DNA of 64,000 nt from Lytechinus pictus (Eukaryota): contig NC_087250.1 of the NCBI RefSeq assembly GCF_037042905.1, forward strand, positions 4,962,001-5,026,000. Direction: 5' to 3'. Below the pieces are notes generated by a model. The model saw nothing but the letters and a program-made list of their open reading frames with translations. It had not been told where the DNA came from and did no database searches. Both the position numbers and the translations under genes were made by a program. This document shows, in pieces, positions 11,318-48,618 of the stretch; within the stretch, counting starts at the first letter, position 1, and each line of letters starts with the position of its first letter.

Positions 11318-11742
11318 CAGGGTGCTACATAAGCACTTGCCTGATTCCCCGGGGCAAGTAAAAGATAGAGTCGGGCTAGTGTTTTGAAGTAAAGACCAAA
11401 ACTACTTGCCCGAATTGGGCAAGCAAAATTCTCACAGTAAAATGACAAAAACTAGGGTCGATTTGATATGATATTGACCCTCATTTTGGTCATGGCAAGC
11501 AAGATGAAATCACTTTTGAAAAAGAAATGCAATAACAAGGTAGATCAGTTCATGTCAAAAGAGAGAAAAAGGTCAATGGTTTATAAAACCACAATACTTG
11601 TACTTTCTTTTGAAGAGGTACATATTTTTTCAGGATTTTTTTCGGGCAAGTGAAATAGATTTTCGGGCAAGTATATCACAACTATTTAAAAATTTACTTG
11701 CCCGACTGGGCAAGTGCTTCTAAAAAGTTATGTAGCACCCTG
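11318..11742. mobile_element. MITE with CAGGG...CCCTG ends (hAT/P-like)
   Basis: TIR cagggtgctacataa / ttatgtagcaccctg, flanked by the direct repeat ATACCGG. Confidence 0.8.
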
Positions 11743-14104
11743 ATACCGGTACTACAAAACGTACAGTAGACATGCATTGCCCTGCTGTAGTGTGAATGTG
11801 GTCCTTGATGATGTCATAATGGAGATGGAGGTACATTATGTACATTCATGTATGTAAAGGTTATTCATCACTTGACTCTCAGTAAAACCAAGGGTTGAGG
11901 GCAGGCAAAAAAATGTATATATATTTCTTTATGGGAGGGGGGTGGGTACTTCTCACAACTAACTGCCTACATCTGCAACATTAGAAAGCTTTCACTTTGC
12001 AATGAATGGGGATTGTCCAAGGCTACATGTACTTGTTTAGTTCCTAGGCCCCTTTTGAGCATTTAGGGTATTTTTTTAAATTTATTTAATTCTTTTTTTT
12101 TGAGGGGGGGTTGAAATTTCCGAGACCATGAGCGATTTTTTTCCCCTGCACCCCTCCCTCAATCCAAAAAGGAATGATGTCCATACTCATACTAGACATC
12201 AACAAGCTATTAACTACTCCTCAGCTTATATGTCACATGTAATGGCATTACGCCTCAAGAACACGATGATATGAACGTTTCAACAGCACTCCGCAATAAC
12301 ACACCATGATTGCCTCTTTATGAGTGCTACTATTCACGATCCCCTTGGCTTGACTAGAAGCTGTTCACATTGACATTTCTTTGGCGTAGCCCCTTCCTTT
12401 GAACTTGACCCGAGTACATTAATTTTCAGTTGTACTTTTCATTTTTGTTCTCTCAGTTTCCTCTAGCTCTTTGCCAAATAAATGTTCTGAATGAATATGC
12501 CCTAATCTACATGTATGTGTTGGCTCTTGCTTGAACAAATACTTTTAGTGCCCCCTCCCGCGTTTTTTTATTTCAATAATCAACATGTTAGAACGTATTG
12601 GCCTACTTCACAAGTGGACCTTCATTTTTCACACTGACCTGATTGTTCAGTCATGAAATACAATGAAATGAAGAGGGCTGAAATATCTTTGTTAGCTTTA
12701 TCCTACTTCCGCTGACAAAGTAAAAGACATGGCCCCTTGCAAAGCATTAATTAGCAAATTGCTTTGAAAGTGCTTTTGTTCATCTTTGGATCCCCCTCCA
12801 CCCTAGGCCCGTTTTGAAAGTCATTTTTTTTATGCACGTGTACACGGCGTGTTTTTCGGAGTCCATCCCACCCCTGCCCCCCCCCCCCCCGCCCCTCGTT
12901 TAATGCCACCATCACAACATCAGTTGCAATGCTCTGAACTCTGAAGAGAAATTCATCTACAGTATAGGCCTGTATTCATGCATACAAATAGCTTTACCCC
13001 CATATCCCCCCCCCCCACCATTACCTCCCACCTACAATATACAAACATCTTCAGGAGACACTTGGCAATGTGAACAGACCCATCATCTTGGTGTAAGTTA
13101 AACATTCATGAGTTAAGATGTTTTGAGAGGCCCGCCTATCATATTGCTATGTAAGGAGATGCTATTTGGCCCCCAATGAAAGGATGCAAGCAGGCTACAA
13201 CGCTTCATCTCCACATATATCTCACAGGAATTATCATCACCCCAATCGACAGAGTCACATCTCAAGGCACAAAAGTCATGTCGGTGCAGGAAGGCCCTTA
13301 GCAACCACACTTTCGCAAACCTCACCGGTTGCCCTTATGCAATGCCCTAATGTGCACTACTAATGCGCGTAAGTGTGGTGATAAGTTCGTTTCTGCACCG
13401 ACAGACGAAACATTTTAGGTGTGTCGACTGTGCTCAATTCACATAAAACCAACATTGATCTAACAATATCTGTACATGTACATGTAGGTCATACATTATC
13501 AAGAGAAAGTGTAAATTTTACCAAAAATAAAAGAAATGCTGATTTTGCATGACACTGTGGCAGACCGCTCTTTCTGAGGAATTTCCATTGAAATAGTGTC
13601 ATCCACAAGTTTATAAATATAAAGTCCCTGTAGTCTATAAAATTCTTGTCTTTTTTTTTTTTTACTCACGAACAGATTTTAATATGAAACACCCACAGGC
13701 TCTATTTTCAAGACTACATGTACAGTAAAATCCTATTTTTTCTTTAAAAACATAGCCATAATCATCACTCTTAAAGTCTTTAATAAATAAAAGTTAAAAA
13801 AATCCTATGTTTGTGGGTGGGAAAATTCTACTTTGTGGGAACTTTCAAAAGTTTCAACTTAAATCTCGTACGGGTAAATAGGATAAAATTCTAATTGGCA
13901 GCTCTGTACATCAACCCCATTAAAATGCAAGTTAAATTGACCTAAAAAAAAAGTCTGAATCTACCCGCATTTCTCCACCATGGGACCGCACCTTGTCTAC
14001 ACCTGTTCTTGATGTATTCGTTCCATGAGCCAGCACTGCATGATGGGACACTAATCAATACCACTAATGTAACCCACATACATGTACTATATCTGTTTTA
14101 CATT

Positions 14105-14950
14105 ATTGACAGTTCTGTGGGTCCGTTTCATAAAGCTGTTCGTATAGTTAAGAGCAACTTTAAGAACGACTCACTGGTGATCCTTTCTTGTGGTAAAATG
14201 ATATTCACCATTAAATGTTTATTGGTGATGGTTTTAATAGTGCAAAAGAAAGGTTGACCAGTCGTTCTTAAAGTCGTTCTTGACCCTTATTGACAGTTTT
14301 GGGGCCATACATAAAGTGAAGAGCGACTTTAAGAACAACTGGTGATCCTTTCTTTTTGTACATGTAGTAAATGGTATACACCAAAATGTTCATTGGCAAT
14401 GGTTTAGTGCAAAAGAAAGGTTTACCAGTCGTTCTTGACACTTATTGACCATTCTGGGAGCTATTTCGTAAAGCTGTTCAAAAGTTTAGAGGACTTTAAG
14501 AACTACTGGTGATCCTTTCTGGTAGTAAATGGTATACACCAAAATGTTCATTGGCGATGGTTTAGTGCAAAAGAAAGGTTTACCAGTCGTTCTTATATAA
14601 AGGCGTTCTTGACATTTGACAGTTCTGGAGGACAGTTCATAAAGCTGTTCATATAGTTAATAAGACCAACTTTAAGAACGACCGGTGATCCTTTCTTGTG
14701 GTAAATTATTATTTTCCTTTTCATCTTGAATATTGTGGTTAGTATTGCAATTTATGTTTAAACATTTTCATACATTGTACGCGCTATGGTACTTTTTGTT
14801 TTTAGCGCCTCTAAATATCCATTATTATATTGAAATTAATGATATTCACCATTAAATGTTCATTGATGATGGTTTACTTTTATAGCGCATACCACTCGTT
14901 CTTAAAGTCACTCTTAACTTTATAATACGAACAGCTTTATTAAAAACCCA
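14105..14950. repeat. degenerate tandem array (4-5 units of about 165-190 bp) derived from a MITE
   Basis: Recurring cataaagctgttc...actttaagaacgactggtgatcctttct...ccagtcgttctt. An intact single MITE lies at 15236-15416. Confidence 0.8.
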
Positions 14951-15235
14951 ACACAATCAGATAGAATGAATGTCCAGAGTAGGTCTGATTTGGGGGTGGG
15001 GTGGACTGAGGCAGAAACTGGGCCGACTATAAACATTCAATTGTTTTGATCTACCCTCTTTTCAATAAAGTCTGATTTGAGTGCAGAGAATGTCGTGAAA
15101 CAGAAACTGGGCCAACTGCATGTATGTAGGCCTTATAATCAATTTGTTATGCTCATCTTCCCTTATAATGGCGGGTTCCTCCCGTTTCATTTTATCCCTC
15201 TTTGGAGGTTATTTTCAACAAATCAAAAATAGCCC

Positions 15236-15416: not shown

Positions 15417-15492
15417 GACCTATGAAATAGCATCCCTTATCCTAAATTTCCACAAGTTTTTTCCTTCATTATCCTTCCTGTTTTCCATTTAA

Positions 15493-15916: not shown

Positions 15917-15954
15917 CATGTACTTTGGACTCATCACCCTTGCTCCTACCTTAC

Positions 15955-16370
15955 TCTCCTACAAGTTCATTTTCAAACAAACCAGAATAGCCTTGAAGAT
16001 CGCATCCCCCTCTTCCAAATTGCCTTGAGATGTTTTTCTCTTTCATCCCCTTCTCAGCACGGATATAGGTTAACAAGCTCCAGGCGTTGCTGCTGGTACT
16101 ACTTCTGTCTGTCTTGCGACTCTTGAAACACAATACCGCAGACGTTCTTGTCTGTCACTCACGCTCAAATGGTCGATTGCCGTTGTCTCTGCCCGTTCCT
16201 CCTTCATCCGATTCGCAATCAATTCTTCTCTCATGATATTCAGTAGGTCCAATCATCCTCGTCTTCTCATCATCTTTATGACCTTTCCCATGGAGGCTTT
16301 ATAATCCTTCCTCCTCAACCCGACATATGAATATTATTTTTTCATACATGAAGGGCTATCATCCTATCAG
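15955..16370 (-). other. possible alternative 5' exon of the catenin gene
   Basis: Non-repetitive segment, purine-rich on the minus strand, ending in a gtaagg donor-like motif near 15955. A GC-rich patch lies upstream at about 17220-17345. Confidence 0.3.
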
Positions 16371-16650
16371 GACCCCGTCTAACAAAGAGTTGTGATTGAT
16401 CTGATCATCCACAGCTATGGAAAGCCAGCAACGTCAATATCTAAAATGCACGTTTGTTCAAAATATTTTCTACATATGATGTACATGTATATTCATGCAT
16501 CCATCATTTTCCTGAAAATTCAGTGTGCTTCTCTTTGCTTACAAATGACAATTTCCAGTGGAAAAATTCTGACATTGATGGATTTCCATACAGTTGAGAA
16601 CTTGAGATTGATTGGATCAATCGCCACTCTCTGTGAGATGGGGCCCCAGG
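16369..16650. mobile_element. ~280-bp MITE family; other copies at ~46510-46833 and 58829-59102, shorter relative at 17853-17987
   Basis: TIR gacccc...acaaagagtt..gattgatc / gatcaatc...actct...ggggcccc, with a shared interior across copies. Confidence 0.78.
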
Positions 16651-19743: not shown

Positions 19744-21015
19744 ATAGAGCGTTTTAGCGATGCATTATTTTGGTCTGAAATCCGATGAATAGCTCCTGTA
19801 CAAAATTTGCCATTGAAATTTATAAGACTTTTTCAAAGGTGTAGTGCGCATGCGCGAATGCGTGAAATATACAATGGGTATAACAAAGAAAGCAATGTGA
19901 TGCGCAGTATAGAGCGCAATGACGTCATAATCAACTACCGGTACACGTAAGTCGCATGTCAACGACAAGCTTGATCCTAATGAAGTGATGATGCCATATC
20001 AAATTATATGACTTGTTCAACCAAATTTCTCCCTCTTTTTTTTGGGGGGGGGGTTGGGATAGATGATTATATTGGATGGCTTTATTTCATGGAATTCCAG
20101 AAATATTCCACTCGTTAGGGCCAATACTCCACTCACCTGCGATTCGTGGAATATTTGCCCAAACACTTGGAATATTTCTGGTATTCCATTCTGAGCCACC
20201 CAATATTTTATCATAAATATTCAAAACTGCATCCCATTCATCAACAAGTTTTATTATGGGTGGCAGCAATAGGAAGCTCCTTGGTAATACCAAATCAGCA
20301 AATGCATCAATAACACTGACTTTGGCAAGGCTTGTCATAACGATCATCAATCATTCCTACATGCGCATGTATAAACAGGGAAAATTCATGTACAATGTAC
20401 ACATATATGCCAACATTCTGAGAGAAACAAATAATTCTTCCAGTTTATTTGACTTTTATATGTAGTTTCATTATTTTCTCTCTCTCTCTCTCGAGTCTTT
20501 TTGCCAAAGTTTAATAGCGTTTTGACAAAAATATGTATTAGAAAACAAAAAGATTTTTATTCAGAAAGAGAAAAGGACTCTTTATTTTGTTAAAGGTTTT
20601 TTTTAATATATATATATAGTGCCTGTTCCAGTGGTTTTTTTTTTCATATGACATCCTGCAATGTGACTTGTGAGATTTTGAGATCAAAGGACCATTTCAT
20701 GCAAGTTATCAGCTATGACAATTTTCATGTCATTATTCAACAGTTATAAAACCAGACACCTGTAGGCCTACTTCGAAGCCATTCAAAACTGAACTGTCCG
20801 ATTTGAACTCATCAAACGGCAAACGTTGATTTAATAATAAACACCCAATTGGGCACTGTACATGTATTAAGCTTTGTCGTGACTGATCATGGTAGGCCCT
20901 ACTACTGACATGATTAATTGCATTGATTATTACAAATGCATGATCAGTTGTTAAATTCAGCCAAACGATCAATCGCTATGCATTATCAGATTAAACATGG
21001 CTTTTGCCTTTTATA

Positions 21016-21583
21016 CAGTGCGTCCCAGAAAAAAGGAAACCGGGATTCCCATGTCTTTTTTTCTTCAAAGGCAAATGAAATATGATATCTAATTCTATTT
21101 AATCATATACATGTAGTTTAATTATTCCTCTTTATGTTGATACCTTCATGTAATATGTGACAAACACTTCAGGCATTAATGAGCAAAGTGAGTTTGAAAT
21201 TTTAATGTCAAAACTAGGTTGCGCAGAAAAATTTGACAAGATTGGTTCGTCATACAACGAACATGCTTATATGACGATTGTATTTCTTTTGTATTTCTTT
21301 GTTTTGTATTCTTTATTGTTTCTCTCACTGATCCCTCAAATGAGAGTGGATTCAGATTCACACACGAGTTTCTGCGCAAATCGTTTCTGATACTAGTATA
21401 TATACCTGTATGCATCAGTATTTATTGTTTGTAATCTGTCATGCCTGAACGATTTGCTATTTTGGTTTCAAATCAGAGATGAGATTCCACTCTTGCCATG
21501 AGTATCAAATTTATAGTAAAAACACATCTAATAATTCTGAAATCTTTCTCTGAAAACGTGCTTCCTTTTTGTGGGACGCCCTG
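21016..21583. mobile_element. Tc1/mariner-like MITE (CAGTG ends); a right-end fragment of the family ends at 26091
   Basis: ta|cagtgcgtcccagaaaaaa ... ttttgtgggacgccctg. Also tttttctgggacgcactg|ta at 26073-26093. Confidence 0.75.
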
Positions 21584-24500
21584 TTCTTATGGGCCATGAG
21601 GTTCATGAATCGACATGAAAGCATGTACATGTACATGTACAGTCTTTACTCTTTACAATGTGTTGAGTCTAGTGAATCAATTTGATTTTCAGACACTGTA
21701 AAACTGTTGTGTAATGGAGTATAAATCAATAATCCATACAGGGGATATTAAATGACTACAATTGTATGTGATTCAGTCAGGACCATTCAGACAAGCAAAA
21801 CGTGACAGAATAATTTGCAAAACTATCAAAAAATAACTACACTATTAAAAGAAGGCCTATAATAATACTTGAGCAACAGCTTTACATGTAAAATCATTTT
21901 TTCATTATAGGGTCCACGCATCTACATGTAGGCCAACATGATGCACTTCCTCATACATGTACAATAGTCTATATGGTAAGAGCGAAATTGTGTGGAATAT
22001 TATTGGACTGTGGATACATGTACATGTATGAATGAATTAAAGTCATGCTCCGGTATTAAAAAATCAGACCCCCCCTCCCCCTATTGTACCCATGCAAAAA
22101 TCCGATTGTTGAACAAATATAGAAAACTTTTAAAGTAGTCACAAGTGTGAGCAATCTCCACACACACTGCAGCGGAATTGCGGAGAGGAGCTATCAATGG
22201 CATGATTGTCAAGCTTAAATATAGATCTAAATGCACCTTGGCAAAAAGCACAAAATGATCAATAATTTGTCAGGGACACTGCTATTAAATGTGGGTGATA
22301 CAAATAACATGCAAGCTGTGAATGTTGTCACAATGTAGAGTCATATTCATGTGCAGACTCTTGTCAATTGACAGCTCAAATGCCTATTAAACAAAAGTGA
22401 TAGGCCTGTATGTAGGCTAATGTATGTACATAAAATGTAATATGTATGTATGCTACCCAAGAACTTGGGGGGAGGCGCTGAAGGCTAGTACATGTACGCT
22501 ACCCAAGAACTGGGGGGGTTACAAGGAGTTCGGAGCAATTTCACCCCTCGAAATGCCAAAAAGAGACTTGGAATATCCCCATGCATTGCCATGTCTGAGC
22601 TTATCCAATGAGAATTTGGCAGTTAGTGGAAAAGTAGCCCCCAAAATTATAATATTATATTTTGCCTGCCATAAACGTACTAATAGATTTTCAATGTTTT
22701 TGTTTTATTTTTACAATATTGGATGAGGTTTTATTATGTCTGAATGGCTACGTGTATCAATCATGAAATTGCTGTTAAAAAGATAGTAGACCTTCTTCTA
22801 TGCCATTGGCAGATTAAAAAGCCAAATGTTAAATATTAGTTTGTTGACACAAAACTTGGCTTGTCAACAGAGACATAATACAGAAATTTGTTCATGTTTA
22901 TGTATAGTACATACAGTATAATGGCTCAATCGAGTGTTAAGATGTGCCTCCCCACCCAAGGAAAACAACAAAAACTATACAAATAAGAACATGATATTGA
23001 TACTTACTGTCAGTCAAAAAATATTTGTTTCTTACTTTCCCTGGCTACATGCAGTAAATGTCCTTTTCACAACATACATTACAGCCTATTAAAACTTTGA
23101 TACATTGCAGTGAATTTTTTTTTTTTTTGAGGGGGGGGGGCCTTTTGAATGATTCAGTGGCAAAAGGGGAACCATTGATATATCTTCTTCTTGCACTCAC
23201 TGACAAAATTGAAGCAAATGAACAAATGAAAATTGACATTTCTGAAAGAATTTGTTTTTTGAGTACATGTAGCTACATGTACACATACTGGCCTCTTCAC
23301 TACTAATGGTACCATGAATGATGACTTTATATCAGGTCTTTGATTTCTTCAAGGCTGGACCTCAAAATTTGAAAGAAAAATAAAATGAATACCCTACCCA
23401 TCTTTGGGATTCAATCCGACAATTCATTGTAATTATTATTAAATTGACTTCACCTCATAAAATGCTGAGGAACCCTTTTAGGCATCAAGCTTTATTCAAA
23501 TTACCAGTATGATACAAAATAGTGAAAACAAGTCAGACTGCATGACATTCTAGTGGCTGAACAAGTGTCTTTTACATGTAATACTGAGCTTTCATGCAGA
23601 TCTAATTTTCAAATGGCTGGGATATTTGAACCAAAACAAATTTGCCTAAACAGTCACATGAACCTTGTACACCTGAGCCTCTGTCTTAGTCTCAACACCA
23701 GGACAAAGGGACTTTTAAAAATACGTGTGTATGTACATGTACATTGTACAGACGTTGAATATGTATAGAAGTGGAAATTGTATTAATGGGATGTACAATA
23801 TATACAAGCCTTCATATACATGTACATGAACATACTGTGCATGTGCTGTAGGCCAAAATAAAATGTTGACATAAATTTTTGGTTTTCCAACTATTTTAAT
23901 ATGAAACCTGTACTGTGCACCACCAGTTTATGTAAACTGTAAATAGTGAATTACAAGATCATGTAATGTACAAAGTGCAATTTTATTTTTGACACAAATA
24001 GAAGATGTTACAATGTGTAGGCTGATAGTGTGAAAATGTACATGTACATGAACAGTACTTGGGTACTTCAATGCCAGGTTTTAATTACACACACATTCTG
24101 CACAAACCAACACCCCCCCCCCCCCACCCCTCTTCTCCCGTCTCTGAAAAATGAGCTTTTTTATACTTTGTACTTTGTAGGTAAAAAAGGTAACATTCAT
24201 CTTCATCAAGTTGAAAAGCCTCTCCACCAATCTCAATCAAAATAGATTGCAAAGGTAATTCAAACAGTCAGTCCGCAAGCCCTGAAAAAGTAGCTTCTTT
24301 TATCCAAGTGATATTCATGACAAGAGGGTTTTTGCATAGTTAATGAGCTTGGTGCGAACCAAAACACCTCTTTTTATTCGGCCATTGCTGCTCTAAATAT
24401 TGACCAAATTTCATGTTTTTGGTATCTTTGTAAAGAAGAAGAATTAATATTTTAGGTCATGTGTTTGGATTTTTAAAAGAATGTTGTAATATAGGAAAAA

Positions 24501-27500: not shown

Positions 27501-28345
27501 AGAAATCTAAAGTATTCGCATCTGCAGTGAACAAGGGCAGACGACGACGCTGACTCGAACGATCAGACGACTGCTACGCAGTTCTCGTTCACTGCTCCTA
27601 AAAGTCTCTATTTTATAGCTCCATGCTCTCACTCCACAATTAGTTTTAGGGGAGAATCAAGTTCATTATAGACTAACATATAAAGCTACATGTATCATTC
27701 ACCCATTGCGAGCATATTGTATCTAGCCTTTTGGCAAAATAACATCAGTTGTATCAGGGACATGAGAGGGCACGTCCCTGGTTGTATCCAGTATTTTTTA
27801 ATGCACATTGGGATGCACCAAGGAGCTTTGTTGTTACACATATCAGCCTACATACACGGTATGATACAGAAATAGCATTATTGGAGCCAAAGTTTGCACC
27901 ATTTCCTTCTCATACAAAACCTCAATTTGCCTTTTAAATTAAAGTGAACCATGATTGTACAGTTCTTTTAAAGTCAAATTTTCAGGTATTTTTTTCTTTT
28001 TAATAGTGTGCATTACCAAATCCTTCTTTCATTTTCATGCACTTGTAAAGAATAATTTGTGCATGTGTGAATAATTTGTACTATATACAATACTGTACAT
28101 TTTGTAATCAAACAGAAGAGAGGAATGTACACCGTATTCACACAATACAGCTTTGCATTATTCAGCCCAGCATGAAGGGAAATTCTTTCAGGAATTAGCA
28201 GGATTTACCGCTTTGTAGGCCCCACATCTTATGAACAATAACATGTAGGGTATAAAGTCTTCACATAAAATTCTTTGAGGGCTTTGTAGATTTTATTTGA
28301 TTCAGAATTTCAGATCGAAGGATTCAGGAAGGAATAAAATACACT

Positions 28346-28823
28346 AGGTGGTTTCAGACCGCCTCGAAGTTCGTCAGTTCCAGGTATTCTCTGATCGGGA
28401 AATTTACCCCGATCAGAAAATACCAGGTATTTTGGCGGTCTGAAAGCAAACTACGCGTAATATCCCCGAAAGAAAATACCCGATAAATAGTAGGTACTTG
28501 GCGAAATTACGAGAACTTTCGCGGGGATTTTTCCAAGGTCGTGGGTATTTTGGCGGTCTGAAAGCAAATTACGGGAACTTTTAGCCCAGCGTGTCGTTGG
28601 GTGCGGCGCCGTGCATGGGTTGCTGCTGGGCTAGTGATTTTGAATTTCGCGCCTTGCTGCTTATCAGACCATACTGCGCATGCTCGTAACTTCAGGAACT
28701 TATCCCGAAGGGTATGTTTCAGGGCGGTGTGAATGCAGGAATAATTAATGGGTATTTTTCAGCCTAAAAAAGTTCTCGTAATTTAACGGGGATTCTTGTG
28801 ATCGAGGCGGTTTGAAACCACCT
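28346..28823 (+). mobile_element. 478-bp Harbinger-like MITE, copy 1 (TSD ACT)
   Basis: act|aggtggtttcagaccgcctcga ... tcgaggcggtttgaaaccacct|act. Confidence 0.9.
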
Positions 28824-30016
28824 ACTGTCATTGTACACAATGGGCTTTTCGCACGTGAATCTTGAATCATCATAGTATAAAATGAGAATTGCTATTGTAA
28901 TCGTGACTGTGATTAGCATTCGTGATTCCAATCATGTTCTACATGTAGTTTGGTTTCACACGTGCTACATGTAAATATTCGTTATTAAAAAAAATATTAG
29001 CCTTGTTTTTCACTGGAATCATCATTCAAATTTTATAATACAATTTTTTTTTACTGTGTGAAAGGGCGGCATGTCCAATGCAAAGTAATATACATGTACA
29101 CATCTACACATGTACATGTACAGGCCTATAGATACATGTACAGTAATGTTATGTACATGTACATGTACAATGTAGCTGTACAAGGAATGCCATTGTCACC
29201 TTTGGTTGGTACAAATTTACAGTAGGCTACCTGTACAGTATGCCTTCATGTACATGTACATGCCTTTCACCCCTTGATTTGGGACACAGAATGCAAAGTG
29301 CAAAAAGGCCTCGGTATTGTTTACTTTTCAGGTAGGCCTACATGTACATGTACATGTTATGTACATCTTGTCAATCATGGCCCTTATTGGGCTTTGCAAA
29401 CAGACAAAGGTTGTTTATTTATAAACGCTAGCAATGATACTCAATACATGGATAGCATACTCCCCCCCTTCACACATTTTCAGACAATCAGAAGCAAAAT
29501 TCATAATCAGTCTGAGTGTGTATGACCCTTGGAAGTTTGACATGGCTGAGCGCATCTATTGAAATGCATTGTAAAGGGGAGAAAAGAGTGAATAGTGACA
29601 CTTCACCTCATGCATATAAAAAGCGTTTCTCATTCACTCAAAAAAAGAGTGCTGTATACAACAACATCATATGCAGACCAGCATCACTGCCTGCCTACAC
29701 TGAGGTCTGGCCTACAACTACAGTGTACATATTTTATGTAGGCTGTAGTAGTTGGCTTTAATAATAATACATGCGTTGTTGTTCACCATTTGACTTTATA
29801 TTTGTGAGATACCATGTTGCTTTCTATGTGGGTCGTATAAAAAAAAAAAACATATTGGCCTACATGTACATGCAGGCTAGGCCTCTCTCCTTGTACTACA
29901 TAATTGTCTCCAATGTTATTGTTGATTTTTTAGTTTGATCTACATCCATGGTTTAATGTTGGTCTATGCACAGTTTGTATGTACATGTATGTGGGCCTGT
30001 AGGGCTGTATACATGT

Positions 30017-30590
30017 CCCGGGGGGGGGCCACTTCCATTGACGAGTGGATACCATGCGCGACCATGGGGTCTCGAAAAGCACCCTAAACACGTATTTTCC
30101 ATATTCTGAAAATGCACCCCCTTAACAAGTATTGGCGTCTGCAACCCTACCCTTAACGAGTATTGGAAACAAAACGATATTCTTGGCAAGTATTCCCTGA
30201 AATGAACCCCTAAACAGTACAGCAATATTTTATTGTTGTATCACGAGTCCTTCGTTCGTCGGTTTCACCTTTACATACCATTTGGTTTAGTACGACCCCA
30301 CCTTCCTCACCTCGCCCAAATTGGACTCTAAACACGTAGTGTTGGGGCAAAAAGGACATGTATCCTTAAAATATTTTAATTTAGTTTTATCATCTCCGCA
30401 AATTTAACCCTAAACACATATTTTTCCTAGCGAAATAGATACCCTTTTTTCCTTATTTTTGTGTTTTTGACACCCTTATCACGTTACGTACATGTACGTA
30501 ACGTGTCCTATCTTGAAAAAGACATCCTTTTTACATGTTTTTTTTTGGTCGCGCATGGTATCCACTCGTCAACGTAAGTGGCCCCCCGGG
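30017..30590. mobile_element. MITE with CCCGGG-G-run termini
   Basis: TIR cccggggg..ccactt.cattgacgagtggataccatgcgcgacca / tggtcgcgcatggtatccactcgtcaacg..agtggccccccggg. Both flanks carry ATACATG. Confidence 0.85.
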
Positions 30591-30833
30591 ATACATGAAG
30601 GCCTGCATAATGTACATGTTCATTAATACATGAAGATGATTGACAGAAACTGTCATCATGTTAACATTCAACATGACTACTACGTATACATGTACGTGTA
30701 CATGTAAAATAGGACAATACAAAAGCCCCTCTGAAAGTGAAACTCTGTTATTACCCCCAACTCTAACTGTAGTCTTAAATACTCTTCATTATTTTGTAGT
30801 TCCTGAATAGGAATTCTTCTATCATGACACAAA

Positions 30834-31311
30834 AGGTGGTTTCAAACCGCCTCGATCACAAGAATCCCCGTTAAATTACGAGAACTTTTTTAGGCTGAAA
30901 AATACCCATTAATTATTCCTGCATTCACACCGCCCTGAAACATACCCTTCGGGATAAGTTCCTGAAGTTACGAGCATGCGCAGTATGGTCTGATAAGCAG
31001 CAAGGCGCGAAATTCAAAATCAAAAGCCCAGCAGCAACCCATGCACGGCGCCGCACCCAACGACACGCTGGGCTAAAAGTTCCCGTAATTTGCTTTCAGA
31101 CCGCCAAAATACCCACGACCTTGGAAAAATCCCCGCGAAAGTTCTCGTAATTTCGCCAAGTACCTACTATTTATCGGGTATTTTCTTTCGGGGATATTAC
31201 GCGTAGTTTGCTTTCAGACCGCCAAAATACCTGGTATTTTCTGATCGGGGTAAATTTCCCGATCAGAGAATACCTGGAACTGGCGAACTTCGAGGCGGTC
31301 TGAAACCACCT
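30834..31311 (-). mobile_element. 478-bp Harbinger-like MITE, copy 2 in inverted orientation (TSD AAA)
   Basis: Near-exact reverse complement of 28346-28823, flanked aaa|aggtgg...ccacct|aaa. Confidence 0.9.
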
Positions 31312-32370
31312 AAAGAGATGATCATCCCACCCCCCCCTCACTCCCAAGTCAGGACATAAAAAAACACTGAACTCTAGTGTCTCGCCGCCCACAATGGGAG
31401 AATTCTTCTGCCATGACAGTTCAACCTGTCATCTCAATAAACAAAGCCTTGCAGGATTCATGCTTGTTCAAGCTCACGCCCACACAACATGAAGTGTAAA
31501 TTTCACAATTTTGGTTTATTAAAGAAGTGCTGTAGCCTTCATACTTGTACATGACTTGAAACAAATGTAAATTTCAGAATGTACATGTACATGTACATGT
31601 ACAGGTATATTGTAGTTTACACAAACATGTAATGTAAACGACAAATGTACATGTAGGCCTAAACATGCACTCAGGTACAGTACGTGTAAGTACTGTGAGT
31701 GTGCAGAGCATACCTGTAGGGACTCTCAGAAAATTGTGCTCATCTCTCCTGATAATTGAAATTTTCATTTAAAAATACGAAATCGGAGGAATTCACAACA
31801 ATAAACAGAAAAATATCAACTCTCAGCGTGGTGTTTAGGGGGAATGAAAACTGAAAGTTCTACTAGGCTTGGCACAGTAGGCAATAAATCCGTCAAAGAG
31901 AAAGAGGCCTGTTTACTTTTTGTCCTCAAAAAGGAGGAATTATTCATTAATTTTCCCCCCATGCTGTGTAAAGGTCAGTGAACAATATTCTGGATTAGGA
32001 ATCTGACCACAGCATTCTTTTTACTGTACACATTTAATTCATTTGGGACTCAATGTCATACATATTGTGATACTGAGGTCCTTTTTTCTCTAAATAGTAG
32101 AGAAATGCGCATATTAAAATGTTTGGAAAAAATAGAAATAAATGTAGGCCTACATTGTACATGTACATGTATGATGTATTTCATTACTTCAAAGAGAACC
32201 AACTGATTCAGGATTTGCAGTGTACTGCATGTACAGTACATGTATGTATTACTTATTAAAGATCCATCAAAATCATCAGGCCCTAGATGTAGCCAGGTTC
32301 ATGTTGTTTTAACTTTTAAATATGAAATTTCCCCTCTAATTCCCCTCCAGCCTACAGTAGGGCTATACAT

Positions 32371-32769
32371 GAAGAGCTTGATTCCAAAAGGTGCTAAATC
32401 CACTTTTGACCCAAATTGATTTTCTGACAGAAATATATATATGTATCTTAGACGTTGGAATCAAATGCAACATATCGCATTTGAAAAAAAATTGGAAAGG
32501 TTGGTATTAAAAATTGATTGCAAATTTGAGTTCTGCTCCAAAAGGAGCTAAATCCATGAAAAATAACATTTCAAAAATTCTTTACAAATTGATAATGAAT
32601 GCTAGATTTTTGAAATCATGATTTAAATATAATCTAAGATGATAGTACTATCATATTAATAGAACAGCAGTGGCTATTAAAAGGGAAAGTGGTGAATTAA
32701 GAAACCTGGATTTACAGAAAAACACCAAAAGTGGATCTACATGTAGCTCCTTTTGGAACAAAACTCTTC
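32371..32769. mobile_element. MITE with ~38-bp TIRs
   Basis: gaagagcttgattccaaaaggtgctaaatccacttttg / caaaagtggatc[tacatg]tagctccttttggaacaaaactcttc. Confidence 0.75.
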
Positions 32770-32925
32770 ACGTGTACACTATAGTGTACTTTCCCTCTGC
32801 AATAATGGCAATAAACATGTGAGGGACTTGCAGTCGTGCACGCTACCTTGCCTTTTTCTCTGATGACATTTTAAGTCCCATCTAGTTCCTTAATAGGAAA
32901 GGCCATTAGGCACAAACAACCCTTT

Positions 32926-33799
32926 AGGCGGTGCTGCACCATCCCGAGTTTGCTCAATCTCGAGATTTTAGCCCGATCAGCCCTCTTCGCGATTAATCTC
33001 GAGATTCAAGAAACCCCGTCTGCACCATCCCACGAAGAGCGATTCCTGCTCGAGCGAGGCAACAAGCCCGATATTACGAGCATGCGCACTTTCGGATCTT
33101 GGAGTTTCAACGGCCCGCGCTTTTGAATAACTTCCCGCGATATGCAAGCAATGTACTCCTTTCACTAGCACTTTCGCCGAATTCAACCGGTGTTATGCAA
33201 CAATCCTCTCAGCTCAGCGAGTGAAGAAGTGGTGTATTCTTCGTTAAATATGATGGCGGAGTAGGAGGCAACGACAGAGAGAGAGAGGGGGAGAGAAGGA
33301 GGAAAGAAATGCTATTTGCTCACATTTTGCGAAGGAAGACAACACTGCTGTCAGTGTTGTTATTGAATATGACCATCGTCGATGAGCGCCTCCCCCTTCG
33401 GTATGGTCTCTCCCAAAATCCATTCACTGGTGGGACACCATCGTTGCTTATGAACGCTATTCGCATGTATAAAGTTGACTTCCGCACGTGTTTATGTTTT
33501 GACCAAGGCGGAAGTGGAACGCGAATTGCATTATGGACTGACGTCATGAATAAATTACCCCGAGTCCAATCTCGAGTGCGTCTGCACCGACGAATTAGCG
33601 GGATAATTCGTAAAATAGCGCGCTATTTTGCAAATAAACCCGAGTTGACTTGGGATTGCAATCTCGAGATTAATCCTACGAACTAGCGCGATAATTGCGT
33701 CTGCACCGCCAACTATCTCGAGATTTTTCAGATCGGGATAATTTGCCGGATCAGAAATAGCGCGCTAATTTGAAAACTCGGGATGGTGCAGACGGCCCT
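32926..33799. mobile_element. 874-bp Harbinger-like non-autonomous element (TSD TTT)
   Basis: ttt|aggcggtgctgcacc ... ggtgcagacggccct|ttt. CpG-rich, which suggests a young insertion. Confidence 0.85.
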
Positions 33800-34145
33800 T
33801 TTTTCAGCAGAGACACAAACAACAAGATTAAGGCTTTAAGGGTACGAAAAATCAATAGGACCACAGGTTTCTCACTGACTCAATGGGGTCAATAAAAAAA
33901 AAGAAAGAAAGAAACAAGATTGTCTGTTTTCAAAAAAATGCTATCCTTGACTGAGCCCAATATCTGTGCACACAATAAAATGCATTTATTGCAGGCCTAC
34001 TGGTATCCATGTACATGTATATATGTAATGTCTGTAAAAAGGCACTTTATTGTGTACACATGTAGGTCTGTGTACATTATATGTAACATTATATGTAGGC
34101 CTACGTGTAGGCAAACAATATTACCAATTCATACAAAATTAGTGT

Positions 34146-34925
34146 AGGGACAGTGATTTTCCGTTTCTAAAAATTGCCTTTTCCGTTTCAGAAAATCTCC
34201 AATTCCGTTTCAGCATGTCTGAAAACGGAAATTCCGTTTCCCCATAGACTTTGTGTACATGAAAAAGTGACAATTCCGTTTACATAGAAAACCAATACGC
34301 AATGAGTAGCGCGATGTCAAAATGCTAGCGCTGGTCAAAATTTGCAGCCACCGATGTACTAAAATCGCTTTAAAATCCATTTTAATCGAAGAGATTCGAG
34401 CTAAAAAACTATTTAGAGAAACATAATCAACATTAATACATCCTCACCTTTCATATTATTAGCATTATTTTATGGTTACATGGGATTTTATTGCTGATTT
34501 GGGGACTTTTCGGACATCGTTTTGAGCAGTCGACGACTTCCGCTTATCCGCCATGTTGGATATGTTGAATCACCGTGATCATTGTATTATGACCGAACGC
34601 AGGGGGCAGCAACACACGGCCGTATTCTGCCTTATATGCGGACGTCAGTGTAAACTAATTTAGATACGATCGAGTGATGGAGGGGCTCGAGTGTAGTTAC
34701 GATGTGTTGATTGTCATGATTGTTGTTGCAAAGTGAGATCGTGTTTTTTTCAATTGATATTCGTATTTTGTTGAGGATTTGGGATTAATTTTTGTTGATA
34801 TTTTGTGCATTTTGAGAAAAAACAAGTTTTCCGTGATTTTCCGTTTGAAAAGCCATTTTCCGTTTCAAAAGGCCGATTCCGTGAATTCCGTCCGTTTTCC
34901 GCGATCGCGGAAAATCACTGTCCCT
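34146..34925. mobile_element. 780-bp hAT-like non-autonomous element (8-bp TSD ATTAGTGT)
   Basis: Perfect TIR agggacagtgattttccg, subterminal ttccgttt repeats, exact 8-bp TSD. Confidence 0.9.
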
Positions 34926-35292
34926 ATTAGTGTGTACCATACATGTAGATGTACATGTATATAATTTAGACCTTCATCAGGCCCAGATGTATTAAACTCA
35001 AAAGAGAAACAAAGATTAATAATGTAGGCCCATACATGCATAGCACATGTACATGTATGTACATGTACATACAGGCCTGTATGTACATGTACATGAGGCC
35101 TACATATTAATAACAGTCACATGCACGACTCTTTTTTATACCAAACCATACTACTGTACATTGTATAGGCCGATGTAGATCTGCATTCCTCATCCTGCAA
35201 CCGAAATACGAATCTACATGTACATATATATCCGACTACATCATACATGTAGACTTTCGTGATTTGAATTTTGAAGGATTGAGAAAACTTAC

Positions 35293-35427
35293 CTCACAGG
35301 CTAAAAAGAAATCTTCAAGATGTTTGCCGTCCTTTGGTAGAATGATCCTTCGATTGAAAATGTGGGAAAGAATCAAACAGGCAGTCTCCTTGCTGAAATT
35401 TCCAATTGAATCTTCAGTAGTGAAAGT
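35293..35427 (-). other. putative 5'UTR exon of the delta-catenin-like gene
   Basis: 135 bp with a strong acceptor (ttttttttccccttcactttgtaatacag), a consensus donor (GAG|gtaagt) and no ATG inside. Confidence 0.6.
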
Positions 35428-35959
35428 CTGTATTACAAAGTGAAGGGGAAAAAAAATGCTTTACATAACAATGCACGTGTACATCAAGTTGCTCTAATTT
35501 TAGGCCTTTTTTCTCAGACAAAGTGAAAATTTAAATTAACTTTTAATAGTTAAGCAACCTGATTATTGACCAATTACAATAGTGTGTACACCAATCTGAC
35601 ATCATCGGAATTCAACTTGTAAAAAGATGCACTTGTATGTCCCTTTCAATTCATGACAAAAATCAGAATTTATGAGGCATGGAATTTCAGAAGGCAGTGC
35701 AAGGTCAGAGGTCAAATTCACTTGACCCATATTCTTAAAGATATTGGGGCGATCTTTTGACACGATACTTCAAGGTATTTTGGCAGCCAGTTTGTTGGGC
35801 TCAAACCCCTCAGTTCTATAAACATACAGCTATTTGTAGAAGAGGACTGTATTTTGTGTAATTGAATCCCTTGACCTGCAAAATATCTATAGGCTACTGA
35901 AGGTGGAATCTCAACGCTTTCATAAGTACCTGATCCGTCACGAAAAAGCTGGCATTTAA

Positions 35960-36896
35960 GGACGTTCCACAGTTAAAGTGAAATCCATGTCATTTTCACC
36001 AAACTTTGCACATAGATAATTTAGAACCTTAATATTTGAAATATGCAAAAATTAACATAGGTCCATGTGCTTGATTTTTTGCTATAGAGCTTCAAAGTTC
36101 ACCCAAATTTATGTTCTTAGGAATTGCGCATTCAAAAGAATTTGGCATTTTTAGACCGCCCAAGATTACTACATTGAGTTTAAACCTGTATTACTCAGTC
36201 AAAATACATGAAAAAGTCATCAAATTTCGCGAGAGAGTTAATAATTGTATCGTTAGAATGGAGAATCTATTAATAGTGCTATTTGTTTGCAATTTTAAGT
36301 TTAACAGCACTGTCAGTTCTTAAAAATGGCGTAAAAGATAACAAAATCCCAATCTGAAAAATGTAAAATTTCAGTAACAAACTACAAACGTACAATAAAT
36401 GCTGCACTTTATTCAAAATCCATGTCATTTTCACCAAAATGTGCAGAGTTGTAGAGAAAGGTATATCTAAAAGGTACAAACATTAAAAAATAGGGGTTCA
36501 TGTGCTTGTTTTTAAACTATCAGCATTTTTATTAGAGCAAATGTGCTTTTTAAAAAACACCAAAAATGGGCCGAATGCTTAGTATCTATGTGAAGAAAAA
36601 ATCAAAACCACTCTACCATTTATTCAAACTCGGGCTAATATTCGTGATTCTTGGCAGCACTGCAGAGTAAAGTATTTTGAAATTGTAGAGAATATTTTTT
36701 TGAATGGTCCATGGAATAATTCAATTTTTTAGCTTCATGAAATAACGCATCGGATCTGCAGTTAAAGTGCAGAAGATGAGAAAAATCAGCTAATACCCGC
36801 AGCTAATTAATACCTGTTCATCCATTGTGACGTCAGCGCGCAGAGTGTAAACTATGCGCAGATCATAATGCGCACAAATATAACTGTGGAACGTCC
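35960..36896. mobile_element. 937-bp Kolobok-like element; a second TTAA-type fragment starts at 36901
   Basis: ttaa|ggacgttccacagtta ... taactgtggaacgtcc|ttaa, a perfect 16-bp TIR. Confidence 0.88.
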
Positions 36897-38337
36897 TTAA
36901 AGGGAAGTCTACCCTGACAAAATTTTTATTGTACAAATACATGTAGCAGAAAAGTAATACAAATCAGTCAAAGAATATGAAACTTTTTTTAATTATTTAA
37001 AAAGAAAGTCAAAGAGCTTTCTTTAGGTATGGGGACTTGAGGATTTCACTCTTGCTTCAGGAGTCACTTTAATCATATTAATGGACCCTATTATAAAAGT
37101 TATCAGTTCTAGTAGGATCCATAGTTTAATGTTTCAACTGTATGAAGGTGAAGATTGAATTCAACCAAGGGGTTATCATTCATTCAACCAATTGCAAGTT
37201 TGCTTCTTCTTTTTTTTTCTCAAAGAAATAACAGCAAATTCTAATAGGGAAGATTGGTGACAGTCTGAAAAAAATATACACACCACCCGCCTAAAAAAAA
37301 CAATACAAAAATAAACACATCATGTACATACTCATGTACATGTACTGTATGTACGTGTACATACAGTACATTTGTAAATGAAATACAAAGAAAAGACAAT
37401 TATGAAAGTTGTACTAGTAATTGAAATCAAAGAGACGTTTTGTAGGCTTTGCGAGTATGCCTATGGACATTTAAATGTTTACGTATAATGTCTATTAAAG
37501 CTATTTCAGTCCATTTCTACAGTATGTACATGTATGTTGTAGACTGTACATGTAGGCCTACTATCACTTCAGTTTTTAAACTGAAAATCTCAAACAGACG
37601 GGTCTGACAGCAGCTCAATTTCATTCTCCTCAAGACAGTGTTCTACAGGCTACTAGAGTGTCACCCAAAAATGTAGAGAATGTTTACTGCCTTTGTCAGT
37701 CATGGTTCATTCTCGTTTCAAAATGTCATGAGAATAACTGCAGACAACTTGAACAAATACATAGTGTATGAGAGAAAGACTCTTCCTATGTAGGTCTACA
37801 TTTACATGATGTACAATGCAGACATTACATGTGTAGGCCTATGATTTATACATGTGAAAAAAAAGAAGACGGGCTACATGTACATGTACATGTATGTATA
37901 AAGGGCAAGCGATAAGTCCCTAAATTTTTTTAAAAGCCTACATATAAATGAGAAATGAGCCACTGTCAAATAATATTTCTGCCCACACGTCATAGTGCAT
38001 TAAAATATCTGAACACAATAGACGGATTCAAAATGAATTCAATTTTTACACTGAAAATGTAGACTACATTGTACACTGTATGTACATGTACAATGTACCA
38101 GTAGATATCTACATGTACATGTGCAGGGTAGGACCCTACATGTACATGTACATGTAGGGTGTAGATTTAATACACAAACTTGCCCAGATTTGTCAAGAAA
38201 TTAGATTTCTTGAACTTGAAAGGAGACTAATTGAGACATTCCTGAGGCATGATCAATATGAAATGTAATCTACCCCATGGGACGTTTGAATTTATAGGCT
38301 TTGATTTAAGAGGTGTTTCAGAGAGCTAGACTAGATA

Positions 38338-39156
38338 TAGGGTGCATTTATCCGCCACTTTTTCACCCTAGAATCATGATCTGAATCATGATTCAAATCA
38401 TGATTCTGCAGAATCACGATTGCGTTTAGTCGAAATTGAATATAATCATGATTAGAATCACAAACATGAAACACGAAAAAAGGGGCGTTTGGAAAGACGT
38501 TTCTGCAGAATCACGTACGAAAATGTTCGAATAAACGATATCGTGATTTGAATCATGATTATATGACCTCACTGTGTCGGGCTACTTTCGGTTTGACTCT
38601 TGCCAAGCTCAAGTCTCTCTATATGCTCATTGTATGTACATGCTTACTCTGCATGCATTACTTGTCATGTTCAAGTTCTGTGTTGGTCATCGCATCGTCC
38701 ACTACTTTTAATTTTTTGGTCATGTCTTCAACTTCAAGTTCTAGTAAATGAATCAACTGGACAGACAATGATCTCAGTTGTTGTTGAGTATAGAGTGTCA
38801 ATATTAAATTGGATCTACGCTGAAATTCACTTCCGAACACCATTTTGGATAAACTAACAAGATGAATAGAAGCATATGGACCCTATATGATAGAAGTACA
38901 CAAAATTAGGTATAGACTGAATTCTGGAAGCAAAAGATTTTTCGAGAGCCGAAACACGTGCGAAAAACTTCCTCTGTCAAACTGCGCACTAGTGATGCGC
39001 ACTGGATTGGCCCGAATCTGAGGAGAAACAGCATTGGAATGAAGGTCGTCTAAACGCTGATTCTGTGATATCGTGATTCATGTTTGTGTTTTGAATCATG
39101 ATTCAAATCATGATTCAAATCATGATTCTGACTTGAGGTCGCATAAACGCAGCCAT
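38338..39156. mobile_element. probable non-autonomous DNA transposon with AATCATGATT subterminal repeats
   Basis: Imperfect TIR tagggtgcatttatccgcc / ggtcgcataaacgcagccata, with mirrored aatcatgattc clusters at both ends. Confidence 0.6.
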
Positions 39157-39689
39157 AGTCTACCCATGCAGACTCATTGTAAAACAAAATTTTATTAAAT
39201 AATAAAATTTGAATATTGATTGTAAATTATTATTTTATAATAACTACATGTATTTACAATCAATATTCAAATTTCAATATATAATTTTAATATATGAAAT
39301 GTTCTTCAATACGGCACTTCGTAACATAGCTCATCGAAGCTACGTCATATCGAAGCGGTTCAAGGGTCAAGCCTATTGTATTTGTGGTGTTTACGAATGG
39401 ATCGAGGGATCTACATGAGATTGGTCTGGTAAGAAACCTCTCATTTTTCATATTCATACTAACATATTTTTTACCCCTTCATTAGCATTAGGCGTATAAA
39501 AGTTTACAGATAAATAAAATCAAGAGAAACAAACCGATTTCACCCTCTAAATATGGATTCGTTAGGGAAATCCATCTGTGTTTTATACAAGTCTTGCTTA
39601 TTATTAAAAGCAATGTATGGGGACCATTTCAAGGCTCTGTGTTGTTAAAGTATATTAAAGTAAAAATATTCTAAAATACAGGGTGCATT

Positions 39690-41780
39690 ACATGTACATG
39701 CCGCCGTGTACAGGAAAATCGCAGGTACAGCACATGCAACACTTGCACTGGATCGCGCAAATTTAAAGAATATATTTCTTAGATTTTAACTAGAATAACA
39801 TTATTCTACAAAACTTACTGAACGATATGAATCAAATTTCTGCTTATTTTCTTGAAATACTACATTTAAGTGCTTATTTCTCTTCTCGTTGACGAATTAT
39901 GGAGTTAACTCGCATTTCCCGATTTTTTCATCTAAAGTAAAGAGGGCGCGAGATTCATGTTCATATCAAACACACTACAAGGGAAAGACTACGCACTTCA
40001 AGTATTTCATGTACACGCGTAAATCGATGCAAAGCAATACGCGAAGTCTGCAAAGTGTCCAATCTGTTTATTGTATAGACTTTGGTGGAACGTTTGTTGA
40101 CAAACGAACGGGGGGGGGTCTTTTTTTTTGGCAACAAGTCAATATGACTATTTTCGCCGTAACAGTTGCTCGCACTGTTGGCTTCGTTCAAGGCACATAT
40201 AATTTTTTTGTTTCATGTGTCATCATTTTGAATGTTTTCCAATAAGTTTTAACATTAGCAAAAATAATCTAAAAGTATTTTTTTAAAGTTTGGTGTCCAT
40301 ATTTCATCAATCATAGGAATTGCGCATACAATGAATTTAGATAAAGTACTGACGAGCTGAATTAAGGTTGTGAAATGTATTAGCGCCACCAATGACCTTC
40401 CTTTTATTTCTGTGGAAGAGACATGCGAAGCCGCTTTCCATGCCGAGGTAAGCGTTTATTATCAACAAATAATTTAAAAATTGAAAATGGATAGCCAGTC
40501 GCCGGAAAAAGCCCTGGTGAACATAGACCAAGGCAAAAGCTTTGGTCTCTGTTATGTTGGTTGTTCAGCTGAACTCCGTTGGCTTCACTCACCAAATACA
40601 GAGACCGAAGTTCTCGCGCGATCTGTACAGGGGACTCAATGGCCATATATGTTTATGTATATAAGTTCGGATAAAACAGGGATGTGAAGTTGCGCGACAG
40701 CCGAGGTAAGTCACTGTTTTTGTTCCTTTTAACTTGATTTTTCCCCGTTCTTTGGCAATTAATGCCAAGAGGGAATATTAATTTGCATTTCGGACGCGTT
40801 AATTTTAAAAAGTTTCATTCATTAAAGACAAAAATTGAAGAGCCCCGACGGGGGGATTTTGCACTGTAAGTCCCCTAATGGTGGCTGCACGATAGCGAGC
40901 CGTCTGTGTACGAGGAGAAATTAAAAAAATAAAAATAAATAAAAAAACTCCTCGAAACAGACGGCTGCCAGGCTCTATGTTGAACAGTGAACTGAATAGC
41001 AGAACGAGTTTCGGCAAACATGAATCCTGTTATAAAGTGATGTTAAGTGACAACTCAAAAATCAATTGACATTGTGTAATCACGTTCGTAATGCAAGGTG
41101 AGTTTAATATTACTAACCTCGCAATACGTGTGAGTGGCTAGGCCAAACATAGACACCAATTAAATGCAATAACTTAAAAAACGTACCGGCGGTAGGACTA
41201 GGATCTACTTATTTTTGCTGACGATACTGTTTGGAAAACATTCAAAGCGATGACAAATTTAACATTAAATTTAAAAATAGAAAATTCTTCGGGCCTTGAA
41301 ATGAATAACATAAAAATCAATCGGCATCAATCATCAATCAAATAACACACAAACAAACACATATTGGATTAGGAGCTGCCGAGCCTGCTAACTCGCCACC
41401 GCACCAAAATAAATTACAAATTGTATGGTTTCCCGAACCCGGATCTAGTACTAGTAGTAACGGTCACCTAACGGTACCCCGGCGCTGCCGCTCCGCAGCA
41501 CTCCACGACCACGGGCAACGCCAACCTCTCGCTCTCAAAATCGGTCAATAATCCCGCCTTCTTTGCAAGATAGACACACAAAATCAACCATCAAAACTCA
41601 AATCAAACGTTCTTTATATATTATTTAAGGGAATGAGGGTTACAACTCACCAAAAAAAAATATCAAAGGGTAGAAATCCGAGTTATTATTCCACTGACAG
41701 GTGAGTGACTAGCTGTCCAAATTCACTATAGACGTTCGCATAATCGACACTCAACAGGAGAGGGCGATAGACCACAGTGT
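39690..41780. promoter_or_regulatory. CpG-retaining, promoter-like region
   Basis: CpG dinucleotides are visibly common here (e.g. 41380-41560), in contrast with the CpG-poor, CATG-rich intronic DNA to the left. Judged by eye. Confidence 0.45.
41651..41770 (-). other. putative first (non-coding) exon / TSS region of the delta-catenin-like gene
   Basis: Minus-strand donor TTG|gtgagt at 41651 inside a CpG-retaining region. The upstream boundary is approximate. Confidence 0.45.
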
Positions 41781-48556: not shown

Positions 48557-48618
48557 GGTTCGATCGATAAAACAGTGTTAGTCACGTGTAAATTCAAAAG
48601 AAACCCCCAAAGAACGTG

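Follow-up and report, generated by a model that had tools for sequence, protein, structure and literature searches.

The octamer TACATGTA, an eight-letter palindrome of the form TA-CATG-TA, is strongly over-represented in a 64,000-nt stretch of Lytechinus pictus contig NC_087250.1 (hereafter, the window) and occurs throughout the genome of this organism. Sequence comparison shows that the octamer arises by insertion of a unit, with duplication of a TA that the consensus or ancestral state has only once. We lean towards the view that most single copies were left behind as scars when cut-and-paste transposons of the Tc1 type, which target TA, were excised. According to this model, an element with CA...TG ends would enter a TA, and the TA would be duplicated. 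On excision, each flank would retain its TA plus a 2-nt 3' overhang of the element end. End joining that keeps both overhangs would then leave TA-CA-TG-TA, 6 bases longer than before the insertion. The chief sources would probably be the abundant small families of miniature transposable elements bearing inverted repeats (MITEs) with CACTG...CAGTG ends, rather than a young autonomous Tc1-like family. Arrays of the unit, (TACATG)n, would owe their origin chiefly to slippage within a scar, from one TA to the other, and not to repeated re-insertion.

Abundance of the octamer

For the window, the expected count was obtained from 100 dinucleotide-preserving shuffles. The window contains 93 copies of TACATGTA, compared with 1.72 expected (standard deviation 1.39; maximum in any shuffle, 5). 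The very high density of TACATG(TA) that had been reported in a preliminary description of this DNA was thus confirmed, and it extends genome-wide: the genome of 811.7 Mb carries 224,046 copies (0.276 per kb), which are spread over all chromosomes. The window, which lies on contig 6 of the assembly, is AT-rich (GC content, 0.32-0.44), and most of its octamers lie in one part of it.

11740..39700: octamer-rich stretch with 80 copies of TACATGTA, 2.86 per kb, about 10 times the genome mean

Outside this stretch, 13 copies were found (0.36 per kb). When neighbouring copies were grouped, the 93 octamers formed 79 clusters, namely 68 single, 8 double, and 3 triple ones. No partial unit was present on either side of 46 of the 68 single octamers. 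The three open reading frames of at least 110 aa within 11740-39700 gave no Pfam match.

Insertion of the octamer at a single TA

Five pairs of repeat copies had been cited in the preliminary description as evidence that the motif is extra sequence at a TA. All five aligned as extra sequence relative to a paralogous copy; however, a clean single TA was present only in the partner of 32738 and, nearly so, in that of 16482. The differences at 1349, 14359, and 36938 are true indels whose partner copy has no clean TA. The five sites are as follows.

32738..32745: octamer located in a small element's right inverted repeat (32741-32776), whose left counterpart (32364-32399) has a single TA
16482..16489: octamer, 6 extra bases relative to the paralogous copy at ~58937
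14359..14366: octamer, extra relative to the neighbouring 158-bp repeat unit at ~14521
1349..1362: double unit, 12 extra bases relative to the paralogous copy at ~51801
36938..36945: octamer within 7 extra bases relative to a weakly aligned old copy at ~4478

An all-against-all BLAST comparison was carried out on a 220-kb sample consisting of the window and flanks. It yielded 1,371 indel events, of which 22 were 6 bases long, and 3 of these 22 create the octamer. Duplication of a single TA was likewise seen at L014:3602. A further case in the window lies within a copy of a 565-bp MITE.

30489..30496: octamer within a 565-bp MITE copy (~30020-30590), where a 30-copy consensus shows only one TA; 25 BLAST partners lack the octamer

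The 565-bp MITE has an 8-bp target duplication and CCCGGGGGGG ends. At least 3,412 candidates were found, and the copies are about 90% alike. Among the first 100 of the 1,420 copies listed, 99 had the reference length and one carried the same +6 insertion as 30489. In a 143-nt stretch of this element, 68 copies showed a net gain of 3 to 30 bases. The sequence was read through to the insertion in 21 of the 68, that is, in 20 fetched copies (main-family members with no insertion in the first 80 letters) and in one copy from the list; the 48 copies beyond the 20 fetched were seen in their first 80 letters only. Five of the 21 read-through copies carry TACATGTA, at three different sites, and one carries TAGGCCTA, a second octamer of the form TA-GGCC-TA. 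Three fetched copies have TACATGTA at CG-TA-CG, one fetched copy has it at another site beside a substitution, and one list row has it at CG-TA-GC; the stretches are short, and the tally at CG-TA-CG is one of copies, which need not be independent events. At C10:3780159, CG-TA-GC was replaced by CG-TACATGTA. In the copy L098, GA-TA-CC was replaced by GA-TA-GGCC-TA-CC, such that TAGGCCTA also appears as a +6 insertion at TA. The other read-through copies carry tandem duplications and other insertions.

Four-base palindromic insertions recur in copies of the 565-bp MITE (L113, L114, L119, L121, L094, L099, L112, L124, and L125). TTAA was inserted before TT at three sites in 7 copies. CCGG was inserted beside a TA, and CTAG was also observed. 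At one CC-TA-GC site, TA was changed to TATA and to TATATA.

A 101-nt stretch of a 484-bp family (described below) contained no copy with a gain of 2 to 30 bases; since about 2 were expected, this is within expectation. Sequencing reads of four runs were compared with positions 20000-39999, and no TACATG indel was present among the rows shown, in tables dominated by high-copy repeats.

Phase of the unit and origin of the arrays

A microsatellite that decays at random would leave its six phases about equally frequent. The word ATGTACAT is the reversed word, represents another phase of the same hexamer repeat, and marks the joint between two units. It occurs 85,448 times in the genome, which is 38% of the octamer count and gives a ratio of TACATGTA to ATGTACAT of 2.6. 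Between 11 and 40 kb of the window, TACATGTA was counted 80 times and the other five hexamer phases 44-53 times each. In 56 kb of flanks around 19 unrelated loci, TACATGTA was counted 45 times versus 10-16 for the other phases; in the flank samples, the TA-bounded phase is 3 to 4 times as frequent as the others. Because the TA-bounded phase is in excess, the unit is a TA-bounded octamer and not a microsatellite. In the 220-kb sample, CATG was bounded by TA on both sides in 175 cases, whereas independence of the two sides would give 58. One-sided TA showed no excess in the same sample (22 versus 30.6 expected, and 20 versus 26.1), and the bases just outside the octamer showed no paired or palindromic excess over independence.

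The arrays and clusters that had been named in the preliminary description were all found.

29091..29167: loose octamer cluster with a double unit at 29154-29167
31582..31601: (TACATG)3TA array whose borders are exactly TA...TA
35050..35091: three octamers in a cluster in which pieces of TG and CA stand between TAs
37875..37894: (TACATG)3TA array with exact TA...TA borders
38083..38156: octamer cluster that ends in a (TACATG)3TA array at 38137-38156

Head-to-tail copies are present in 11 of the 79 window clusters, which have 2 or 3 units, and also in rows of Tandem Repeats Finder. In the preliminary description, the arrays were attributed to serial cycles of insertion and excision. This part of the proposal is not supported. 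CATG stands before only 1.66% of TA sites, yet the joints are 38% as common as the octamer; thus, the arrays are too frequent for random re-insertion. Among 100 listed ends of the Tc1 family, one sits behind CATG, and the same number was found among 100 listed MITE ends. No re-targeting of scars was seen, and slippage from a scar as the seed is the simpler source of arrays. The TA...TA borders of the arrays are as expected if slippage runs between the two TAs of a scar.

Elements that insert at TA in the genome

A Pfam search for DDE_3 gave 150 scored matches of 729 candidates. All were above the cut-off, nearly all had an equal score, and most had open frames of about 364 aa. A Tc1-like element of 1.9 kb has the ends CACTAC...GTAGTG, which are directly flanked by TA on both sides, and 440 exact ends of this kind are present in the genome. 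Its transposase of 342 aa is intact and contains the domains HTH_Tnp_Tc3_2 and DDE_3. The genome has 2,666 exact ends in which TA is followed by CACTGTAAAAA, whereas the reversed control gives 160. These ends represent several small MITE families; among the rows listed, many form pairs about 150 bp apart. One Tc1-type MITE lies in the window.

61581..61823, + strand: 243-bp Tc1-type MITE, flanked by TA, starting with CACTGTAAAAACTG and ending in TG

At least 2,548 candidates of this MITE family were found, and 39 other scored copies were 97-98% identical. These data support the conclusion that elements inserting at TA, with CA...TG ends, are numerous in this genome and have been active recently. 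The CATG between the two TAs of the octamer equals the terminal bases of these elements. Transposases of the pogo type are few (94 candidates). The repeat at 16366, 46513, and 58825 was considered as a MITE with CA ends at a TA and was rejected, as its inverted repeats extend past the TA.

Tc1-like copies often form head-to-head inverted partial dimers 1-3 kb apart (L021, L024, L026, L027, L032, and others). These dimers may be products of aberrant gap repair or of a hairpin-like rearrangement.

Bases flanking the octamer

The bases next to the TA were compared between octamers and element ends. Base counts were made by eye from listed rows; the octamer flanks were folded, and sides internal to arrays were dropped. 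In the young Tc1 family, the base before TA at 100 listed ends was A 91, T 4, G 4, and C 1. At 100 listed ends of CACTG-ended MITEs, it was A 42, C 25, G 18, and T 15 at position -1 and A 25, C 25, G 17, and T 33 at position -2. Octamer flanks at -1 were A 90, C 83, G 59, and T 33 in the 220-kb sample and A 49, C 18, G 22, and T 22 at 60 further sites of contig 1, which together give A 139, C 101, G 81, and T 55 (376 half-sites); the shares listed beside those counts for all TA sites are 0.34, 0.15, 0.19, and 0.31.

No difference was seen between the pooled octamer flanks and the MITE ends (p=0.77 at -1 and p=0.69 at -2), whereas the flanks differed from all TA sites (p=4.5e-14 and 4.4e-12). 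The MITE ends differed from all TA sites at -1 (p=0.001) and did not at -2 (p=0.11). The octamer flanks therefore resemble the insertion sites of CACTG-ended MITEs, a likeness that is suggestive.

Related words and the second octamer

Among the 16 palindromes of the form TA-XY-Y'X'-TA, TACATGTA occurred 175 times versus 5.4 expected and TAGGCCTA 34 times versus 1.7. Further enriched palindromes were TACCGGTA (9 versus 1.2), TACGCGTA (3 versus 0.55), and TACTAGTA (12 versus 2.35). TATATATA was raised as well (159 versus 7.65), but it is of low complexity. The other ten were at most 2.5 times their expectation. The four palindromes of the form TA-C-N-N'-G-TA were all enriched (32, 7.7, 5.5, and 5.1 times). 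Between TAs, the four CA-N-TG words were counted 9, 10, 7, and 7 times, whereas words of equal composition averaged about 1.2. GGGCC and GGCCC between TAs were also raised (5 and 3). These CA-N-TG and GGGCC/GGCCC pieces look like junction variation. Within 30 bp of the octamer, TG, CA, and CAG pieces between TAs were enriched (TG 4.3 times, CA 2.4 times).

The genome contains 66,473 copies of TAGGCCTA. Its positions in the window are as follows.

29333..29340: TAGGCCTA, the second TA-NNNN-TA octamer in excess, with a TACATG double unit immediately after it
20763, 26793, 31654, 32145, 34096, 37553, 37834, 41857, 47358, 57474, and 63385: starts of the other copies of TAGGCCTA

Several elements were considered as a possible source with GG...CC ends at a TA and were rejected. 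The 484-bp element and the 875-bp element (32925-33800) both have AGG...CCT ends and a 3-bp duplication. At 34145-34926, the ends are TAGGG...CCCTA and the duplication is 6-8 bp long; the 565-bp MITE was rejected for its 8-bp duplication. A candidate in which TA is followed by GGGAAATTGG had 15 copies, with conserved flanks and an internal TA. Among other leads, an inverted 13-base match near 19326 and 20866 was attributed to chance plus an inserted copy of the 875-bp family. TACATGTAGGCC was rejected as the end of a repeat family, the sequence after 30 such sites being unrelated.

The 484-bp family (28342-28827, with an inverted copy at 30829-31312 that is 99% alike) has at least 2,138 candidates of 99-100% identity, and the 875-bp family has at least 1,841 candidates of about 99%. 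Both families are very young, very abundant, and non-autonomous. The 780-bp element at 34145-34926 has TAGGGACAGTG ends, looks hAT-like, and has at least 1,235 candidates.

Other features of the window

The gene-bearing part of the window, at 53-56 kb, has few octamers. An open frame of 545 aa with ankyrin repeats lies at 53255-55356 on the + strand, and a frame with a glycolipid transfer protein (GLTP) domain lies at 55799-56341 on the - strand. A long tetranucleotide array occupies 7965-8724, in which 118 units of ATGG are perfect at 8020-8494. The regions 42352-43581 and 48600-50150 contain a 204-bp satellite (6 copies, 96% matches) and a complex of 17-, 31-, 83-, and 114-bp repeats of CCAATTGG/CCAGTTGG-like words. 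When the 31-letter words of a 10-kb stretch were sought in sequencing runs of other individuals under the same organism label, a share of at most 0.18 was present, which suggests that polymorphism is very high or that the stretch is largely repeat.

Discussion

The octamer is seen as a +6 unit insertion at TA, elements with the corresponding ends are present in the genome, and the flanks of the octamer are like those of MITE insertions. From these observations, we infer an excision origin of the insertions, a 2-nt stagger, and the retention of both overhangs. The proposal of Tc1-type scars in the preliminary description is sustained in so far as it concerned unit insertion at TA, elements with CA...TG ends, and, as is now added, MITE-like flanks. 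Its serial growth of arrays and its +4 and +5 forms are not sustained.

The following observations weigh against an origin by Tc1-type excision. In a second stretch of the 565-bp MITE, of 152 nt, neither octamer was found in 32 copies with a net gain of 3 to 30 bases (20 fetched, 12 partly seen). The CG-TA-CG site, which is that of 30489 and at least 4 other copies, could have arisen by a 6-base tandem duplication followed by a CpG to TpG change. The density of the octamer is not raised beside Tc1 copies (0.42 versus 0.36-0.82 per kb), and no Tc1 transposase remnant is present in the window. Therefore, the ten-fold local excess in 11740-39700 is left unexplained. No allele or paralogue with an element at the scarred TA turned up, in comparisons that included no junction search aimed at such states. 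The octamer flanks differ from the ends of the young Tc1 family (A before TA in 91 of 100; p=4.5e-20). The base at -1 also varies between the two octamer samples (p=0.0075); hence, the flank match with the MITEs is suggestive and not sharp. No element with GG...CC ends at a duplicated TA was found in scans of 220 kb, although TAGGCCTA behaves like TACATGTA; the family behind TAGGCCTA may be extinct or rare. In 156 kb, the +4 words were not enriched (TACATA 82 versus 79.5 expected; TATGTA 76 versus 79.1), and the +5 words of the Sleeping Beauty type were barely raised (TACAGTA 15 versus 12.3; TACTGTA 19 versus 12.6). Both kinds of word had been expected in the preliminary description, and the k-mer counts do not bear this out.

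Published work on excision was compared with these results. Tc1/mariner excision leaves 3' overhangs of 2 or 3 nt, and the scar consists of overhang sequence between the target duplications (PMC3878927). In the footprints of Tc1 and Tc3 in Caenorhabditis elegans, as is proposed for the octamer, a TA duplication and terminal CA/TG are left at the donor site after end joining (bioRxiv 10.1101/2022.08.01.502254; PMC3878927). The usual Tc1 scar in the worm is +4, TATGTA or TACATA (78%; bioRxiv 10.1101/2022.08.01.502254), whereas here the +6 form with both overhangs dominates, and it is known from genome sequence alone. The canonical footprint of Sleeping Beauty and Frog Prince, C(A/T)GTA, likewise has overhang sequence between two TAs; however, these elements have 3-nt overhangs that pair at two positions, and the result is +5 (PMC3878927). 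In work on rice, excision scars are treated as a measurable genome-wide source of small indels, a likeness to the present case, and the sites themselves vary greatly and include deletions and filler (Roffler and Wicker, 2015; PMC4423477). Of 94 excisions in a comparison of two rice species, only 8 were clean (PMC4423477). So uniform a scar as the octamer would therefore be unusual, and this too counts against the excision origin. Unlike in rice, a single uniform octamer reaches 224,046 copies here, and one genome is enough to show the k-mer excess. In the open-access literature, no report of this octamer excess was found, the rice comparison being the nearest (PMC4423477).

Three other explanations were weighed. 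A process unrelated to Tc1 that inserts short palindromes at TA, either a peculiar form of break repair or an unrecognised class of element, could make both TACATGTA and TAGGCCTA. We regard it as the main rival, but as unlikely. It would accommodate the 66,473 copies of TAGGCCTA, the +6 insertion of TAGGCCTA at TA in L098, and the failure to find a GG...CC element with TA duplication. It would also agree with the recurrent insertions of TTAA, CCGG, and CTAG in MITE copies, with the lack of enrichment of worm-type +4 scars, and with the mismatch between the target profile of the young Tc1 family and the octamer flanks. However, a duplicated TA is the signature of Tc1/mariner, CA and TG are the ends of abundant TA-inserting elements in this genome, and the octamer flanks fit MITE insertion sites. 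We know of no repair process that adds a constant CATG. Hairpin (P-nucleotide) models give TATA and not TACATGTA; reasoned from the MITE copies, neither these nor 3-bp-duplication models reproduce the +6 events.

The octamers might instead be a palindromic hexanucleotide microsatellite, (TACATG)n, that is born and lost by slippage or hairpins, with single copies as decayed arrays. The phase bias (224,046 versus 85,448, instead of equal phases), the insertions at a lone TA without a neighbouring unit, the lack of enrichment of half-sites, and the absence of palindromic extension in the flanks make this improbable, even though 11 of the 79 clusters do have 2 or 3 units, TG, CA, and CAG pieces between TAs are enriched near octamers, and one MITE site is open to interpretation as a tandem duplication plus a CpG change. 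The (TACATG)n arrays of 2 or 3 units resemble a short microsatellite and probably lengthen by slippage; unlike palindromic microsatellites formed by slippage, they start from an insertion that is bounded by TA and prefers one phase, which slippage by itself would not produce. We consider it very improbable that the motif is a product of length-neutral CpG decay of TACGTGTA, TACACGTA, or TACGCGTA, a passenger of dispersed repeats, or an assembly artefact. TACGTGTA (6 versus 0.46) and TACACGTA (3 versus 0.54) are indeed raised in 11-40 kb. The polarised events, however, change the length by +6; one site may involve a CpG change, and only after a duplication. Equally probable decay products, such as TATGCATA (5 versus 6.4), are not enriched. 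The sequences beside the motif are mutually unrelated, such that no repeat family carries it, and the 224,046 copies are spread over all chromosomes. Pure slippage and length-neutral CpG decay had been named in the preliminary description as what would refute the scar proposal, and neither accounts for the single octamers.

A wider reading, which joins excision scars of both octamers, is put forward tentatively, since it is more likely to fail in some part than to hold as a whole. The genome would be a readable ledger of DNA-transposon traffic, with about 140,000-220,000 uniform TA-CATG-TA scars and about 66,000 TA-GGCC-TA scars, the latter from a GG...CC TA-inserting class yet to be found. 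End joining in this lineage would faithfully preserve both overhangs. Palindromic microsatellites prone to hairpins would start from the scars, which would also account for a sizeable share of the 6-base insertions that are not duplications. The mechanism is already known; novelty would lie in its scale, in how uniform the scar is, and in the scar's part in seeding a microsatellite.

If this reading is true, one k-mer count would give the cumulated excision activity of a transposon class, a quantity that is otherwise very difficult to determine, since no copy remains of an element once it is excised. The repair of transposon breaks would be unusually uniform in this lineage. Scars would form a distinct class of indel (3 of the 22 six-base events in the sample), and a palindromic microsatellite could start from a scar. 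Ten-fold regional differences in octamer density (2.86 versus 0.276 per kb) could then map where transposons land and leave in the germ line.

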